Positions 2,595-35,332 of a DNA stretch of 64,000 nucleotides are shown here, piece by piece. How positions within the stretch are numbered: the stretch's first letter is position 1; each line of letters opens with the position of its first letter. The notes beneath the pieces were generated by a model. That model was given only the letters and a program-made list of their open reading frames with translations, did not search any database and was not told the DNA's origin. Position numbers and translations under genes: made by a program. Source of the stretch: Candidatus Coprovivens sp. (GTDB lineage Bacteria; Bacillota_I; Bacilli_A; RF39; UBA660); the NCBI GenBank assembly GCA_051892935.1, contig JBJFGS010000038.1, forward strand, positions 44,477-108,476, in the 5' to 3' direction.

Positions 2595-5447
2595 TTAAAT
2601 ATGTACACCTTTCTTAGCAGAAAGAGCATAACTTGAAAGTCGCTGTTCATTTTTTAATTTTATAGCAGAACGCACAACACCGGATAAATAAGTATAATTT
2701 AAAGAATCAAAAGAATGCTTTAATATTTGTATTGCACTCTCTAAATCATCCATATCAAAAAAGTATTTTTCACCAAAACAACTATCACTAAACCATCCTT
2801 GTTCTGTTAGTTCTCTGCAAGCCTTAATAACATTAGGAGAGACAGAGTAACTATTATTAGCATCCAACACTTTCATAGGAACTCTTGCATTTGCAGATGT
2901 TTTAATATGGAATTCAAAGTTAGAATCAATACCTTTGCTCATTTTTGTTTCATTATAAGTGTCATAGAATTCTAAAATAGCATTATTCATCGAAGGTATT
3001 ATAACATTAGGAAGATGTAACATATGAACACTATGAGTAAATTCCAAATACTTATCTAACATATATAAAACTGCACAATTGGAATTACTATCATACCTAA
3101 TATCTATAAGATAACCGTATTTTTCATAAAACTGACTAGCTTCTTCTTTAGTTACTCTTAAAGAATCACTATTATCATTGTTTTCCGTTCTCATCTTCTT
3201 CAAGTCTTCATAGAATTTTATAATAATATTTTTAATAAATTCTTCTTTATAATCAAAATCATTTACACATTCGATTGCCAAATCAAAATATAATGAATAA
3301 AATTCAGAATCACTAACAAATTTATCTAAAAAAGAATCAATAAATGAAGAATTAAAATCTCCATTTTTTACATTACCTAAATATTGTATCAAAGCACTTC
3401 TTTTATCAGTAACAGAAGAATCACATAATATAGTTCTTACTTTCTTAATAACAGAAGACAATTTACTTCCATACAACAGATTATTAGGAATCAAACAATT
3501 ATCTTTTATATCAGATAAAAGCCTATCTGTTACCTTCTTCAATTCATTAAATTTAAAAGTAAAATTTTTCGCAAACAGATTAGAATAATGATCAACTACT
3601 CTTAAATAATTATATATTGTATAATCACTTACATCATGAGCCATATTATTTTCCAAATATGCAAAATATATTAAAGTATGTATTCTATCCCTTTTCCAAT
3701 TGAAAACTTTGTTTTTATATAAATCTTTCATTGCATAACTACCATCACTATTTGGAAGTGTATAATAATTATTTTTATAAAAATCATCAAGATTAATTCT
3801 AGAATGATATCGTAAAGCCATAATATCAAATAATTTAATAATATCTTTTTCACTCATACTATCTGAACTAAAATCAAAGTCTTCTAATTTAAAAGATAAA
3901 CACGTTTCAATAGAACCATAAAAACCATACTCTTTCATTTCTTCAAATCGATAAAAAGAATCACCAATTTCATCATTAATACCAGAATCCTCTATATTAA
4001 AATAATTAATTATCTGAGGATTTATTTTTAATAAATCTATAAAAGATTCACAAAACCTATTATTACTTTTACGTAAGTTTTTTAAAATGAAATCATATAT
4101 ATCTTCAAAAGAACAATTTAAATCTTTTAAAGATTTAAAATAATTTTCACAAAGTAAAAAGTAAACAGCAAAATTATTACTATTAATATCAGGAAATGAC
4201 ATTAAAGAAGCATCGCCTTTATAACAAAGAGAACCATAATCATTAATATAATAATCGGAAAATATTTCTTTTACTTTTAAAATGGCATCATCATAAGAAA
4301 TCTTACCATCTATTTCATCTTTCTTTATTTGAGCAATAGCTTTCATAGTATTAAGAGTATAAATAGAGCCACCTCTACCAATTCTAAATAAACTATTACT
4401 ATTCTTATCAAGATAATAATATAAATAAAGTTTTGAACCTAATTCATCGGCAATAATATTAGATAAATCGCAAAAATCAGCAATCTTATAGGATAAAAAA
4501 CCTGAAAAATCAATATAAGAATCTAAACTCATAACAATCTCATCAAACAATGATAGATTTTCATCCTTCATAAAATAATCAAAAATATTAAAATTTGATG
4601 AAAATAAATTTTTACTAATACTATCCAATCTATTAAATATTTCTTTAAAAGAACCAAAAATAGATTTATAGGATCTTAATTTTTCAATTTTATGTTTCAA
4701 ATCAGTATAAAATATCCCTATATTATTTAAAGGTGCATATCGTTCTTTAAAAAAAGCAATATCTTCAGACAATTTAAAAGAATAAAAAGGAAAAGCGCCA
4801 TCAACTAAAGGTATTTGACACATCTCACATATACTTAAATTATTAATAATACTTGGAATACGATTTAAAATCAACTTATCAAAACAGTAATTAGAAATAT
4901 TATATCCAATATCGTAATGTGTTGGTAAAAGTGTATAAAATAATCTAGGGATATCACTATTATGAGCAATATCATTAATTATACTACTAAAATCATCAAT
5001 GCTTCCATAAGCTTCATAAACATCTTCACTAGGAACAGAATCAACAATCAAAGAATGTTCTACTTCAAGTGTATCAAGAGAAACATGAGTAAGAGAAAAA
5101 TCTCTATAAGAAAATAAATTATATAAAAGTTTTACATCATCAATTATATTAATAGTACCATTAGTTCGTTTTTTTAAATCAATTAAATACTCAAAATTCT
5201 TATAAATACAATCAAAATTTCCTTCAAAAACAGCTTTAACAAAAAAAAATCTAAAATTTTTATCATAAAAATAGTTTTTTTTATCTAAATCCAATATCAG
5301 TCTTGAAAGATTATAATAATTAGAAAGAATAATATATAGATTTTCATTTTTCTTTTGAGAATAATCTGGTAATTCAAAATCTCTACTTACAATATTATAC
5401 AAAGATTCTAAAAAACTATCATCAAATATATTTTGTATACTACCCAT
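2595..5447 (-). CDS. Large hypothetical protein (950 aa)
   Basis: Long ORF with RBS GGTAGG; no family recognised. Confidence 0.75.
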   Translation of the reverse strand: MGSIQNIFDDSFLESLYNIVSRDFELPDYSQKKNENLYIILSNYYNLSRLILDLDKKNYFYDKNFRFFFVKAVFEGNFDCIYKNFEYLIDLKKRTNGTINIIDDVKLLYNLFSYRDFSLTHVSLDTLEVEHSLIVDSVPSEDVYEAYGSIDDFSSIINDIAHNSDIPRLFYTLLPTHYDIGYNISNYCFDKLILNRIPSIINNLSICEMCQIPLVDGAFPFYSFKLSEDIAFFKERYAPLNNIGIFYTDLKHKIEKLRSYKSIFGSFKEIFNRLDSISKNLFSSNFNIFDYFMKDENLSLFDEIVMSLDSYIDFSGFLSYKIADFCDLSNIIADELGSKLYLYYYLDKNSNSLFRIGRGGSIYTLNTMKAIAQIKKDEIDGKISYDDAILKVKEIFSDYYINDYGSLCYKGDASLMSFPDINSNNFAVYFLLCENYFKSLKDLNCSFEDIYDFILKNLRKSNNRFCESFIDLLKINPQIINYFNIEDSGINDEIGDSFYRFEEMKEYGFYGSIETCLSFKLEDFDFSSDSMSEKDIIKLFDIMALRYHSRINLDDFYKNNYYTLPNSDGSYAMKDLYKNKVFNWKRDRIHTLIYFAYLENNMAHDVSDYTIYNYLRVVDHYSNLFAKNFTFKFNELKKVTDRLLSDIKDNCLIPNNLLYGSKLSSVIKKVRTILCDSSVTDKRSALIQYLGNVKNGDFNSSFIDSFLDKFVSDSEFYSLYFDLAIECVNDFDYKEEFIKNIIIKFYEDLKKMRTENNDNSDSLRVTKEEASQFYEKYGYLIDIRYDSNSNCAVLYMLDKYLEFTHSVHMLHLPNVIIPSMNNAILEFYDTYNETKMSKGIDSNFEFHIKTSANARVPMKVLDANNSYSVSPNVIKACRELTEQGWFSDSCFGEKYFFDMDDLESAIQILKHSFDSLNYTYLSGVVRSAIKLKNEQRLSSYALSAKKGVHI

Positions 5448-32654: not shown

Positions 32655-33341
32655 TTAATTAGATATATTTAAAATATTATCCAAAAACTTCTTTATACAT
32701 TTAATTTTCAAAATAAAATAAAAAATCATACTCCCTAGAATATTTAAAATATAGTCATCAACATCAAAAGAACCAATTAAAGCTAGAAACTGTATCATTT
32801 CAATAATCAATATTATTATACTAACACTAATAAAATAATTGTACCATTTTTCATCAGTAGACTTAAAAATTCTAGGTAAGAATAAAGCAAAAGGACAAAA
32901 AGCTAACACATTACCAAAAATATTGTAAATAAAATCACCAACAGCTAAATTACCATTTCTCAAAGCTAGCAAATAATTATTTATCGTAGAAAAAGGAATA
33001 ATATTAAAAGAACTCTTAAAATATTCTTCAAAATAATTCAAATTAATTAAATATATAGATACACCTTCCCTACCAAAATATTTATCAAATAAAGTTAAAT
33101 TAAGCAACATAATAATATACAATACAAACCAAATAAGAAAATTTAATTTATAAATTTTTTTATAATTAATAAATTTACTTCCAATATACGTAAAAATAAC
33201 TATAAAAAGCAAAACAACAACTCTAATAATTGGTGAAGTTAAACTTAAAACCGAAAATTCAAAAATAAAATAAATAACAAGTAACACCAAAGAAATAACA
33301 TAACTAATAATTCCTAGTATTATATTTGTTCTATTCTTCAT
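32655..33341 (-). CDS. VanZ family membrane protein
   Basis: NIIPF.TI, GNVLAF.PF, IE..Q, G.FDVDD.ILN..G; likely ATG 33341. Confidence 0.85.
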   Translation of the reverse strand: MKNRTNIILGIISYVISLVLLVIYFIFEFSVLSLTSPIIRVVVLLFIVIFTYIGSKFINYKKIYKLNFLIWFVLYIIMLLNLTLFDKYFGREGVSIYLINLNYFEEYFKSSFNIIPFSTINNYLLALRNGNLAVGDFIYNIFGNVLAFCPFALFLPRIFKSTDEKWYNYFISVSIIILIIEMIQFLALIGSFDVDDYILNILGSMIFYFILKIKCIKKFLDNILNISN

Positions 33342-33395
33342 AATATCACCATATTCTCTAAACATTATATCAAACAACAATAGTTATTAAAACAT

Positions 33396-33432
33396 AAAAA
33401 AAGCACAAAGGCTGTCACCAAAGTGCTTTTTT
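33396..33432 (-). terminator. Terminator-like hairpin at the 3' end of the ncRNA
   Basis: AAAAAAGCAC-16 nt-GTGCTTTTTTT. Confidence 0.75.
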
Positions 33433-33887
33433 GTGAAGACCACACTATCTCGACTAAGCTGACAGGCTATGCGATAATAGCGCTCATTGAATTAAAAAAC
33501 TAATCTCCACTGTACGTACTACTTAATAGCTCAATGATTAAATCGTAGAAGTTTTAAATATGATATATCTTGAAAGAATACCACTAAGTGAACATAAGTA
33601 ACAAATAGTTAACTCAAACAAGATATATCAAAACTACTAACAAATCAAAACTGCCGAACACATTCCAAATTTCTTATTCTAAGCGCATCATACAAAGATA
33701 TCTTTCAATCATTGTATTAGCAATAATCCTATTGATCATTTTATTCAAATAACCAATAGAACTAAATAGAAAAGAAAAATTAAATATATTCACAGTAGCT
33801 CACTTACCAGCGTACTAATAAGTAAACTCCTAAACAATAAAGATAAGAAGTTGCCATATTTAGCTTCCACACTTTACTATTAAGTAA
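33396..33887 (-). ncRNA. Large structured non-coding RNA, about 490 nt (ROOL-like or new class)
   Basis: Own promoter and terminator, no long ORF, several helices of 12-18 bp rich in G-U pairs on the minus strand, two pseudoknots, CUGUCA/UGACAG kissing loops. Confidence 0.8.
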
Positions 33888-33891
33888 CTTT

Positions 33892-33920
33892 ATTATATAA
33901 CTAATAATATTATATGTCAA
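33892..33920 (-). promoter_or_regulatory. Consensus sigma-A promoter of the ncRNA
   Basis: TTGACA (33915-33920), 17-nt spacer, TATAAT (33892-33897). Confidence 0.85.
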
Positions 33921-33927
33921 TTACTTT

Positions 33928-34239
33928 TTAAAGTTTTTCTATTTCTTCCTCTCTTATTCTTTTCAATCTTTCTTTTACTAATAATATCAATTCAGTACTT
34001 GCATTAACTTTAGGTAAAACTATCAAACTATCTTGTAATTTAGTTTTCAATTCTCTATCACACATAACCCTATTAGCTTCCTCTTTATAATTAAAGTTTT
34101 TTATCGAATTTTGTTTTACAAAACTTCTTATATATTCTTCTATATCCTTTAAAACATACTCTTTTAAATCGTATTCATCCATTTCACTTATTCCATAATA
34201 AGCTCCTACTAAATACCTAAAAGTATCATCTAAAACCAT
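33928..34239 (-). CDS. Hypothetical protein
   Basis: 103-aa ORF with RBS GATGTG; no family recognised. Confidence 0.7.
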   Translation of the reverse strand: MVLDDTFRYLVGAYYGISEMDEYDLKEYVLKDIEEYIRSFVKQNSIKNFNYKEEANRVMCDRELKTKLQDSLIVLPKVNASTELILLVKERLKRIREEEIEKL

Positions 34240-34324
34240 TTAAATCACATCCAATATTATGATTATAACACATTAATATTTTTTTAATAAATATCTCTCC
34301 AAAAAACATGATATACTATTACTG

Positions 34325-35332
34325 GTGATAATAATGATAATAAGAATAATAGTTTTAATAATTCTTGTTGGTATAAACGGAATACTATCCGCTAGCGAAA
34401 TAGCTTATATATCTTTAGACAAATATAGTATTTCTAGAAAAAAAGATAAAAAATCAAAAAAAATTACAAACATGTTAGAAAATGAAAATAAGTTTTTATC
34501 AACCATTCAAATAGGTATTACATTTGCTGGATTTCTCGCTTCAGCATTTGCGGCAGATTCATTTACAGATTTATTAATAGATTATGGTTTCTTTTTAATA
34601 AATGATGCTTTTACAGAAAACTTCTTAATGATAATTATAACATTAATACTATCATATTTTACGTTAATTTTCGGTGAACTCGTACCTAAAAAAATTGGTT
34701 TAGCTTATCCATATAAACTAGCAACGATAACTATAGATTTTATTAGTGCTATTTCCATAATTGCAAATCCACTAATAATACTGCTAACAAAATCAACAGA
34801 AATAATATGCAAATTATTAAAAATAAAAGAAAGAGATGATTCTCTAACAGAAAATGATATAAAAAAAATGATTATTACAGGAAGTCGTGAAGGTATTCTT
34901 GAAGAAAAAGAGAAAGAATATATTCTAAATATATTTAAGTTTAACGATAAAACAGCCAACAAAATAATGACACCAAAAAATCAAGTAGTAACTTTAGATA
35001 CAAATGATACAATGCAAGAACTAATAAGAAAAATAAAATCTTCAAATTATACAAGATTTCCAGTCTTAAATAACAATAAAGTAATTGGTTTTATAAACAT
35101 CAAAGATTTCATTTATTTACATCAAACTCAAAAAAAAGTTTCGTTAAATGAATTAATAAGACCAGTACTAAAATTCAATAAAAATGAAAAAATTGATGAT
35201 ATATTTCGAATCATGCAAGAAAAACACGAAACTTTTTCAATTATATTAGATAAGAATGAATTTATAGGAATCCTTACAATGGAAGATGCAATTGAAGAAA
35301 TTGTAGGTAATATTGAAGATGAATACAATTAA
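34325..35332 (+). CDS. CNNM/DUF21-CBS hemolysin-family protein (no C-terminal CorC domain)
   Basis: SASEIA, FLSTIQIGIT, FGELVPK, tandem CBS domains, T.ED..EEIVG.I.DE. Confidence 0.9.
   Translation: MIIMIIRIIVLIILVGINGILSASEIAYISLDKYSISRKKDKKSKKITNMLENENKFLSTIQIGITFAGFLASAFAADSFTDLLIDYGFFLINDAFTENFLMIIITLILSYFTLIFGELVPKKIGLAYPYKLATITIDFISAISIIANPLIILLTKSTEIICKLLKIKERDDSLTENDIKKMIITGSREGILEEKEKEYILNIFKFNDKTANKIMTPKNQVVTLDTNDTMQELIRKIKSSNYTRFPVLNNNKVIGFINIKDFIYLHQTQKKVSLNELIRPVLKFNKNEKIDDIFRIMQEKHETFSIILDKNEFIGILTMEDAIEEIVGNIEDEYN

Follow-up and report, generated by a model that had tools for sequence, protein, structure and literature searches.

A stand-alone structured RNA gene of uncultured gut Bacilli, and its proposed assembly as a helix-exchanged dimer

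Within a 64,000-nucleotide (nt) stretch of a Candidatus Coprovivens genome (assembly GCA_051892935.1, contig JBJFGS010000038.1; hereafter 'the window', the coordinates of which are used throughout), the minus strand from 33396 to approximately 33886 encodes a non-coding RNA (ncRNA) of about 490 nt. In what we regard as the likely reading, this gene gives rise to a stand-alone, abundantly transcribed and elaborately structured RNA, which acts as a dimer whose two halves exchange a short helix (termed here 'helix A'). The RNA is a member of a family of stand-alone RNA genes that is confined to one family of uncultured gut Bacilli. With it, the very limited set of RNAs known from this large group of small-genome organisms gains an abundant member.

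A preliminary description of the same DNA, made from the letters of the sequence, had proposed an independently transcribed, ornate ncRNA of about 490 nt, equipped with its own promoter and terminator, devoid of any long open reading frame (ORF) and without phage or transfer RNA (tRNA) neighbours in the window. All of these proposals have stood up; the individual helices and the affiliation that it suggested have fared less evenly, and are taken up below.

The gene, its transcript and its family

Transcription of the RNA can be ascribed to a consensus sigma-70 promoter (a 12 of 12 match to TTGACA-17-TATAAT), which is the sole perfect site between 32500 and 34500; promoter-like sites as a class are not enriched in that interval (14, versus 16.2 +/- 4.8 in shuffled sequence). 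The start of transcription would fall at about 33884-33888, and a -35/-10 pair is found immediately before the first helix of the RNA (P1) in 44 of 47 copies of the family. At the opposite end, an intrinsic terminator (A6GCAC...GUGCU7, 33432-33396) is present in the minimum-energy fold, and its stem is paired in 94.7% of cells across 88 distinct sequences, with changes on both sides in six of its eight pairs (in an alignment that was fitted to this stem). The predicted transcript folds with an energy of -144.6 kcal/mol (z -7.91, a value matched by none of 100 shuffles), as compared to -80.0 kcal/mol (z -3.10) for the plus strand of the same segment; the difference between the two strands thereby confirms the asymmetry of G-U pairs that had been noticed at the outset, and attributed to selection on RNA structure.

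Evidence of expression comes from public sequencing runs. Twenty of the 24 runs listed contain part of the stretch, and six of these are recorded as RNA. When contigs from the runs were compared over 32900-34400, metatranscriptome contigs from three runs (belonging to two studies) were found to lie inside the predicted transcript: one of 451 nt at 33418-33868, one of 456 nt (425 of them aligned) at 33440-33864, and one of 380 nt at 33480-33858. These contigs display word depths of 10.9, 72.5 and 443.9 and differ from the window at 4-14 positions; run X6 provides a second contig of 128 nt, of which 44 nt lie on the stretch (33508-33551). Their ends are found at 33858-33868 on the 5' side (inside the predicted 5' end) and at 33418-33480 on the 3' side, as would be expected for a discrete, abundant RNA of about 490 nt. 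The three RNA runs contributed no contig in the flanks over the interval compared, which a DNA run does cover; because the contigs are filtered and cannot show absence, the uncovered flanks are taken as a weak hint.

Full-length homologues were identified by BLAST at 83% identity (in genome G004) and 71% (in G006), together with many partial matches to the first 60 nt and the last 170 nt of the RNA. The layout common to them runs from a consensus promoter and a conserved 5' end (ACUUAAUAGUA), through a middle that varies in sequence and length, to a conserved 3' core followed by a terminator. With a covariance model built on that core (R1), the E-values of which are rough (as are those of a second model, R2), 25 of the 27 genus genomes were found to contain 47 copies in all, with one to five copies per genome, often in tandem: the genome of the window (G000) has a single copy, and another (G007) has five in a row. 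The genes range in length from 265 to 623 nt, with a median of 357. In the remainder of the same bacterial family, R1 finds the RNA in 11 of 149 sampled genera other than that of the window, and R2 (in an order-level sample) in 9 of 149 other genomes; among 137 genomes that represent 25 other families in the class, R2 finds no copy. An exact pattern composed of the promoter and P1 identified 36 metagenome contigs, on which R2 confirmed 44 3' cores at E <= 1e-4 (43 of which pass 1e-5, the E limit for the alignment termed A7). Phage and plasmid collections yielded no blastn match to the RNA, and a pattern scan of IMG/VR yielded 11 hits, none of them confirmed by R2; the sensitivity of that scan is limited, because its pattern matches only 22 of the 47 known copies.

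Helices, palindrome and proposed pairing between molecules

The secondary structure of the conserved 3' part (Table 1) was evaluated on 88 different 3' cores. Helix A, the kissing pair and the palindrome described below formed no part of the model used to align them, so that the counts for those three elements are not a product of fitting; kin among the sequences are not independent, and some helix assignments were read by eye. Considered as a whole, the structure is 93.5% paired, compared to 79.8% when columns are shuffled (none of 500 shuffles reaching the observed value) and 42-52% when partners are slid along the alignment. The clamp that joins the 5' end to the 3' part of the molecule, P1, is paired in 402 of 414 cells in 46 copies (97.1%), with compensatory double changes in ten copies (for example, ACCUGAUAGU with ACUAUCAGGU). 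The adjacent helix P2 covaries among eight long forms (for example, GC in four with UA in two, and AU in four with GC in three). Between P1 strands the distance varies from 137 to 451 nt across the family.

Within the 3' core, helix B also covaries among the eight long forms (UA in six with CG in two, and GC in six with AU in two), and the energy of its duplex over 47 copies is -7.7 kcal/mol for cognate strands versus -4.5 kcal/mol for non-cognate strands. Its assignment is taken from those long forms and energies, because family-wide realignment stayed noisy (only about 59-61% of the helix being paired as aligned in 47 copies with model R2). Hairpin C/D covaries among long forms as well, and its loop (CUGUC, 33461-33465) is complementary to the loop of the terminator (GACAG, 33412-33416); this 'kiss' is paired in 95.3% of cells in the 88 sequences, and compensatory variants of it are found (CUGACA/UGUCAG, CUGAUA/UAUCAG and CUAUCA/UGAUAG). 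Helix A, finally, crosses both P1 and helix B. It is 93.7% paired, and six of its seven pairs change on both sides.

Of the helices folded by hand in the preliminary description, the 12-bp long-range stem (P1), the GUGGAAG/CUUCUAC stem (P2) and one of two crossing pairings (helix A) are thus borne out by covariation, the last of them strongly. Three stems of the middle domain (the hairpin with a UACG loop, the 18-bp hairpin, and the stem between 33619-33630 and 33561-33572) are kept in the relatives at 83% and 71% identity, with compensatory changes seen by eye. A proposed extension of the long-range stem (UAAAUAUG with CAUAUUUA) found no such backing, being absent from the 83% relative, and neither did the other crossing pairing (33791-33797 with 33508-33514), since the compensation for a change from U to C at 33509 in G004 lies at 33434, on the opposite strand of helix B, and not in the partner proposed for it.

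Table 1. Coordinates of the RNA gene and its structural elements in the window, followed by a group of protein genes located upstream of the RNA in other genomes.
Feature	Position	Strand	Remarks
Sigma-70 promoter, TTGACA-17-TATAAT	33892..33920	-	12/12 match
P1, 5' strand UUACUUAAUAGU	33876..33887	-	extreme 5' end of the RNA; pairs with 33519-33530
P1, 3' strand GCUAUUAAGUAG	33519..33530	-	pairs with 33876-33887
P2, 5' strand GUGGAAG	33864..33870	-	pairs with 33545-33551
P2, 3' strand CUUCUAC	33545..33551	-	covariation, long forms
Variable middle domain, multi-hairpin	33552..33863	-	not alignable across the family
Hairpin with UACG loop, 13 bp	33798-33827	-	middle domain
Hairpin, 18 bp	33724-33764	-	middle domain
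Hairpin with loop UGAAAGAU	about 33690-33717	-	middle domain
Stem, 12 bp	33619-33630 with 33561-33572	-	middle domain
Helix A, 5' strand UCAUUGA	33531..33537	-	in the P2/P1 internal loop; pairs with 33484-33490
Palindrome GUACGUAC	33512..33519	-	directly 3' of P1; unpaired in monomer fold; proposed duplex between molecules
Helix B, 5' strand GUGGAGAUU	33502..33510	-	pairs with 33433-33441
Helix A, 3' strand UCAAUGA	33484..33490	-	on the strand inside helix B
Hairpin C/D	33443..33482	-	loop CUGUCA at 33460-33465; stem predicted by fold
Helix B, 3' strand GGUCUUCAC	33433..33441	-	covariation, long forms
Intrinsic terminator, hairpin and U7 tail	33396..33432	-	fold, covariation; interior with UGACAG at 33412-33417
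Genes of the 151-157-aa protein family	L031:5237-5701; L047:1895-2350	-	
Genes of the 151-157-aa protein family	L054:760-1233; L056:719-1189	+	

The element that points beyond a single molecule is the palindrome. Its cells are complementary in 88.6% of cases among the 88 sequences, and its sequence shifts freely while remaining self-complementary (GUGUACAC, UACCGGUA, UAUGCGCAUA, AUUCCGGAAU, GGAUAUCC, GGAAUUCC, UGUAAUUACA and UGCGCA). The energy of the self-duplex is -12.7 kcal/mol for the window sequence, and -6 kcal/mol or lower in 82 of the 88. The two adjacent bases at its centre are complementary in 81 of 88 sequences (CG in 48, UA in 22, UG in 7, AU in 3 and GU in 1, with 7 others); because adjacent bases cannot pair with one another within one chain, their covariation argues for pairing between molecules. 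The same type of signal, covariation of adjacent bases, backs intermolecular bridges in the OLE and GOLLD RNAs, according to Kretsch et al. (Nature 2025, PMC12286853).

Tandem copies of the gene provide a second line of evidence. In two neighbouring copies of the five in G007 (a and b; L031:4869-5009 and 4451-4595, not counting their 5' parts), each palindrome pairs poorly with itself (a:a -3.4 and b:b -2.6 kcal/mol) and well with that of its neighbour (a:b -12.7 kcal/mol over 11 bp), the two being mutual best partners among the 88 sequences; the strands of helix A behave in the same manner, with energies of -2.4 and +1.2 kcal/mol in cis and of -6.7 and -9.5 kcal/mol between the copies. An independent metagenome contig that differs in sequence (L114) repeats this pattern, and a second lineage (L108 and L131) displays helix A energies of -2.3 and -2.4 in cis versus -10.2 and -8.1 in trans. 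Among other tandem copies, the palindromes of the pair L128 are 'orthogonal' (self -11.6 and -15.9, cross -7.2), as are those of L137 and of the a/b pairs of G011, G016, G021 and G026. Tandem pairs in G013 and G019 favour the hetero-duplex (-16.4 versus -9.4 to -12.0). Finally, the terminator loop of b-type copies (L034:3449-3584, L036:2926-3065, L033:3251-3385 and L035:2580-2717) lacks GACAG, and UGACAA is found just after the hairpin; the hairpin loop of these copies is complementary over 7 bp to the terminator loop of the a-type copy next to it, a better fit than the 5 bp achieved by the a-type's own loop.

On the basis of these comparisons the architecture can be outlined as follows. P1 and P2 clamp the 5' end to the 3' part of the molecule, enclosing a fast-evolving domain of several hairpins, and P1 is followed by a conserved 3' core in which the palindrome, helix B, a loop that kisses the terminator loop and helix A are brought together, with helix A linking the P1/P2 internal loop to the strand inside helix B. 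Two such molecules would form a symmetric dimer by means of their palindromes and would exchange helix A with one another. On the continuous strand at the 3' side, the succession of helix A, P1, palindrome and helix B leaves 0-1 nt between neighbouring elements, which suggests that the exchanged helix A, P1 and helix B might form long stacked helices running over both molecules, with the variable arms directed outward. The RNA would be expected to be compact and long-lived owing to the pairing of its 5' end and the kiss with its terminator loop, and the kiss itself may also act between molecules, giving rise to higher-order assemblies. After duplication of the gene, paralogues would have diverged either into orthogonal homodimers or into matched heterodimers.

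Whether the family as a whole amounts to a natural assembly system built of RNA only, with its specificity residing in the palindrome and the exchanged helix and with paralogues that form orthogonal homodimers or obligate heterodimers (such as G007 a:b or L108/L131), is a more tentative proposition, to which we give somewhat less than even weight. If it were true, these would be the first natural paralogous ncRNAs to co-evolve a heteromeric RNA-RNA interface. The family is compact (265-623 nt) and offers natural compensatory mutations, its paralogues trading self-fit for mutual fit at two elements; dimerization, the specificity code and the switch between hetero- and homodimer are therefore directly testable with in vitro transcripts. 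As to its role, we would guess, by analogy to OLE, ROOL and GOLLD, at an architectural or scaffold RNA that possibly holds a protein.

Relation to PGK RNA and to RNAs that assemble

A search of the whole window with 4227 Rfam models (including ROOL, GOLLD, OLE and raiA) identified none at its gathering score; the RNA locus thus displays no match to those four or to RNase P or transfer-messenger RNA (tmRNA), and at E <= 10 the interval 33250-34050 contains two chance hits only (CRISPR-DR46, E 0.57, and a viral pseudoknot, E 3). The initial suggestion of a compact ROOL-like RNA consequently has nothing to support it. The alternative offered along with it, a new class of RNA, does not hold wholly either: the window copy has no Rfam match, and a related locus in another genus (L077, genus g169) matches RF03040, known as 'PGK RNA', with 61.7 bits against a cut-off of 50.8. 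In a search of 20 homologous loci, overlapping Rfam hits were obtained only for PGK and for ncr1015, both on L077, the latter being a chance match below threshold (38.8 bits versus a cut-off of 60). Both R1 and R2 detect this L077 locus (E about 1e-8 to 1e-7), and its match to RF03040 corresponds to the first 90 nt of the 3' core that those models find.

RF03040 is a 92-nt motif, typed 'Cis-reg' in Rfam, the consensus of which contains helix A placed around the 3' strand of P1 and a palindrome (ACAAUUGU), followed by a hairpin (GAGAAAGAAAACUC) and by a second hairpin with the loop ACUGAUAA. Of 151 genomes sampled from the same bacterial family, 15 contain it at scores over the cut-off, all of them from other genera and again including tandem copies; it is found neither in G000 (genome-wide, at E <= 0.01) nor in one other sampled genome of the genus. 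When 13 PGK loci were read outward from the motif, 12 were found to have a consensus promoter about 300 nt upstream of the motif and, directly behind that promoter, a strand that complements CUAAG of the motif and is equivalent to the 5' strand of P1; in the 13th (L166) the 330 nt read did not reach a promoter. The palindrome follows in all 13, and the terminator loop (UAUCAG) complements the hairpin loop (CUGAUA) in 11 of the 11 loci read that far. In PGK loci L156-L170 the motif looks mis-delimited and mis-typed, forming part of a larger gene that is provided with a promoter and a terminator of its own.

The two branches share a bacterial family and an order of elements (helix A, the 3' strand of P1, the palindrome, and the pair formed by the hairpin loop and the terminator loop). 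The outer helix of RF03040 (6 bp, CUuauC/GauaAG, enclosing about 25 nt) has its counterpart in helix A of the window, as placed by the L077 alignment. Where RF03040 has a 3' hairpin with the loop ACUGAUAA, the window has a hairpin with a different loop (CUGUCA) and a matching change in the terminator loop, so that the kissing pair is CUGUCA/UGACAG in the window versus CUGAUA/UAUCAG in PGK. In contrast, the internal hairpin of RF03040 (GAGAAAGaAAACUC) is absent from the window RNA, which has no hairpin of the GAGAAAGAAAACUC type and instead pairs 33502-33510 with 33433-33441 in the long-range helix B; the gene downstream is VanZ-like, rather than one for phosphoglycerate kinase; and the 92-nt, cis-regulatory motif of Rfam differs from genes of 265-623 nt that are self-contained. 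The window RNA therewith appears to be an unrecognized and divergent branch of a superfamily, of which RF03040 holds a fragment of the sister branch, and the typing of RF03040 as cis-regulatory is probably wrong. The RNA-only assembly system considered above, if real, would re-class the PGK motif, which would then count as part of a self-assembling RNA and no longer as a cis-regulator. The source of RF03040 is presumably a 2017 survey of 224 candidate RNAs, in the main text of which (PMC5737381) 'PGK' does not appear; a search of the literature found no description of the window RNA, the survey supplements (where PGK or the family might appear) lying outside that search.

Assembly by means of complementary or palindromic loops was first argued from covariation and compensatory mutants for the prohead RNA of phage phi29 and for the dimerization initiation site of human immunodeficiency virus type 1. 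Those are viral packaging RNAs, in contrast to the chromosomal gene family of gut Bacilli considered here.

Large structured bacterial RNAs of enigmatic function are rare, and recent cryo-electron microscopy has found that several of them are oligomers composed only of RNA. According to Kretsch and colleagues (PMC12286853), OLE (a dimer), ROOL and GOLLD (nanocages) are homo-oligomers formed via kissing loops and via palindromic loop pairs that covary at adjacent bases, and OLE contains long co-axial helices that span two monomers. The window RNA resembles these in being a large, ornate and structured RNA of Bacillota with a mostly enigmatic function, and differs in having no sequence or model similarity to them and in that its assembly is proposed from sequence comparison. 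Its family is further distinguished by a linear palindrome of 8-16 nt beside P1, combined with an apparently exchanged helix; by tandem paralogues with matched or orthogonal interfaces; and, relative to ROOL and GOLLD, by the lack of any phage link found and by tRNA neighbours at only two loci, both in other genera. A further parallel exists in HYER1 and HYER5, ribozymes derived from group II introns, which, according to a review (PMC12990946), form homodimers partly via palindromic pairing, members without the palindrome being monomeric; palindrome-based homodimers are likewise what is proposed for the window RNA, which has no match to a group II intron model and in which no element resembling domain V was seen.

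Alternative readings and the surroundings of the gene

A number of points weigh against the reading of the RNA as a stand-alone, dimeric molecule. With regard to the transcript, assembled contigs provide neither strand, exact ends nor level, and the filter may hide flanking contigs; one of the contigs from an RNA run has a 30-nt loose end at 33864; and a simple terminator scan of the region returned no site, having missed the hairpin because the interior of the latter is larger than the loop limit of the scan. With regard to the family, R2 hits 2 of 21 PGK loci, such that one model does not span both branches, and the window copy is not matched by RF03040; for these reasons the homology of the branches rests on two bridging sequences and their shared architecture. 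Neither a protein partner nor a ligand or target of the RNA was identified, and a search for antisense targets (blastn-short against its own genome) yielded only AT-rich matches of 22 nt or less with a best E of 0.011. With regard to the dimer, which is argued from sequence comparison rather than from physical observation, helix A could be an intramolecular pseudoknot in the many copies that allow cis pairing, and the cis and trans forms are indistinguishable in a homodimer; among about twelve tandem-copy lineages, 2 provide the cases with swapped helices; and it is conceivable that the palindrome is a site in DNA or a site for a protein.

These last points define the alternative that survives best, although we consider it rather unlikely: a structured RNA that remains monomeric, in which helix A is an intramolecular pseudoknot, the palindrome serves as a site of protein binding or of a tertiary contact, and the swapped complementarity of tandem copies reflects either recombination among the repeats or pairing inside transcripts that read through. 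A cis form of helix A is possible in 77 of the 88 sequences (with an energy better than -3, the family mean being -6.7), and large RNAs commonly contain long-looped pseudoknots. However, the covariation of central adjacent bases in the palindrome is impossible within one chain; in G007 a/b, and likewise in L114, helix A and the palindrome jointly lose self-fit and gain mutual fit; a second lineage (L108/L131) has a swapped helix A as well; and a protein site would not be expected to vary so freely as does the palindrome (GUACGUAC, UACCGGUA, GGAUAUCC, UGCGCA and others) and yet stay palindromic.

That the RNA might instead be a cis-regulatory leader, or an attenuator akin to a riboswitch, that acts upon the downstream gene is suggested by the typing of RF03040 and by the position of the RNA terminator just upstream of a co-oriented gene for a VanZ-like membrane protein. 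We judge this to be highly improbable. The VanZ-like gene has its own extended -10 element (TGaTATAAT, 33372-33364), located beyond the RNA terminator; the identity of the downstream gene varies from locus to locus (VanZ, an AI-2E transporter, a P-type ATPase, a VWA protein or rpsL), with pgk (PF00162) found downstream in only 1 of 10 PGK-motif loci; tandem copies are each provided with a promoter and terminator; and the contigs from RNA runs stop at the ends of the RNA. An equally slight chance is assigned to the notion that the locus is a repeat or small mobile element at the level of DNA, with its structure incidental. Tandem duplication is indeed frequent, and copies are dispersed in some genomes (up to five on four contigs); against this stand the strand-specific G-U pairing, compensatory changes in six helices, the absence of any transposase or recombinase flanking the RNA in the loci examined, the single copy in the genome of the window, and the lack of blastn matches in phage or plasmid collections and of confirmed hits among the 11 from IMG/VR.

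A gene for a small protein, or a divergent housekeeping RNA (RNase P, tmRNA, signal recognition particle (SRP) RNA or 6S RNA), is the least credible reading of all, since the short ORFs that are present (the longest in the sense direction having 39 codons and a GTG start) are conserved neither in position nor in length across ten long homologues, where the longest ORFs have 15-40 codons at unrelated positions and none is conserved, and housekeeping RNAs score above their cut-offs at other places in the genome: an RNase P of type B on contig C14 (265 bits), a tmRNA on C24 (133 bits) and a small SRP RNA on C27 (50.9 bits). The model for the large SRP RNA has no match in the genome.

The gene for the VanZ-like protein probably starts at the ATG at 33341-33339, which is preceded by a GGTGA ribosome-binding site (33350-33346), rather than at the TTG (33380) that a mechanical list of ORFs indicates. 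A CNNM/CBS gene on the opposite strand also flanks the locus. On the upstream side lies orf103 (33928-34239, minus strand), which encodes 103 amino acids (aa) and is well conserved (50-81% identity); it falls into no Pfam family, and the Atlas gave no usable hit for it. In all 23 of the 27 genus genomes that have orf103, it is located 2.5 kb or less upstream of a copy of the RNA, either directly or (at distances of up to 2.5 kb) with two genes inserted between them. Another 12 genera possess orf103, and in these no RNA was found within about 2 kb of it (with filters off and E <= 1), and in the other genera that do have the RNA, orf103 is on other contigs or at least 30 kb away. The proximity of orf103 to the RNA is treated as synteny at the level of the genus, and not as a demonstrated partnership.

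A second family of small proteins, of 151-157 aa, with no Pfam hit and a mutual identity of 28-46%, is encoded in four species of the genus (Table 1), directly upstream of the RNA or RNA array and between it and orf103; by BLASTP it is unrelated to the latter. In two other genera the RNA has tRNA genes for neighbours, with ten of them within 3 kb of the RNA gene at L075 (G138:C5:5339-8478) and one directly downstream of the RNA at L093 (G272:C10); these settings recall the neighbourhoods of ROOL and GOLLD, and the window is without such tRNAs. The genome of the window also contains a match resembling 6S RNA (G000:C25:101383-101564, minus strand), which at 41.3 bits falls below the gathering score of 46.4 and is probably the 6S RNA of this organism. 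Lastly, the closest public relative of a protein encoded in the window (80% identity over 650 aa) is found on CAZJHG010000013.1 (L086), where the label 'uncultured Muribaculaceae bacterium' is probably wrong: its other relatives are labelled as Bacilli or Bacillota, and an RNase P RNA of type B is present in the genome.

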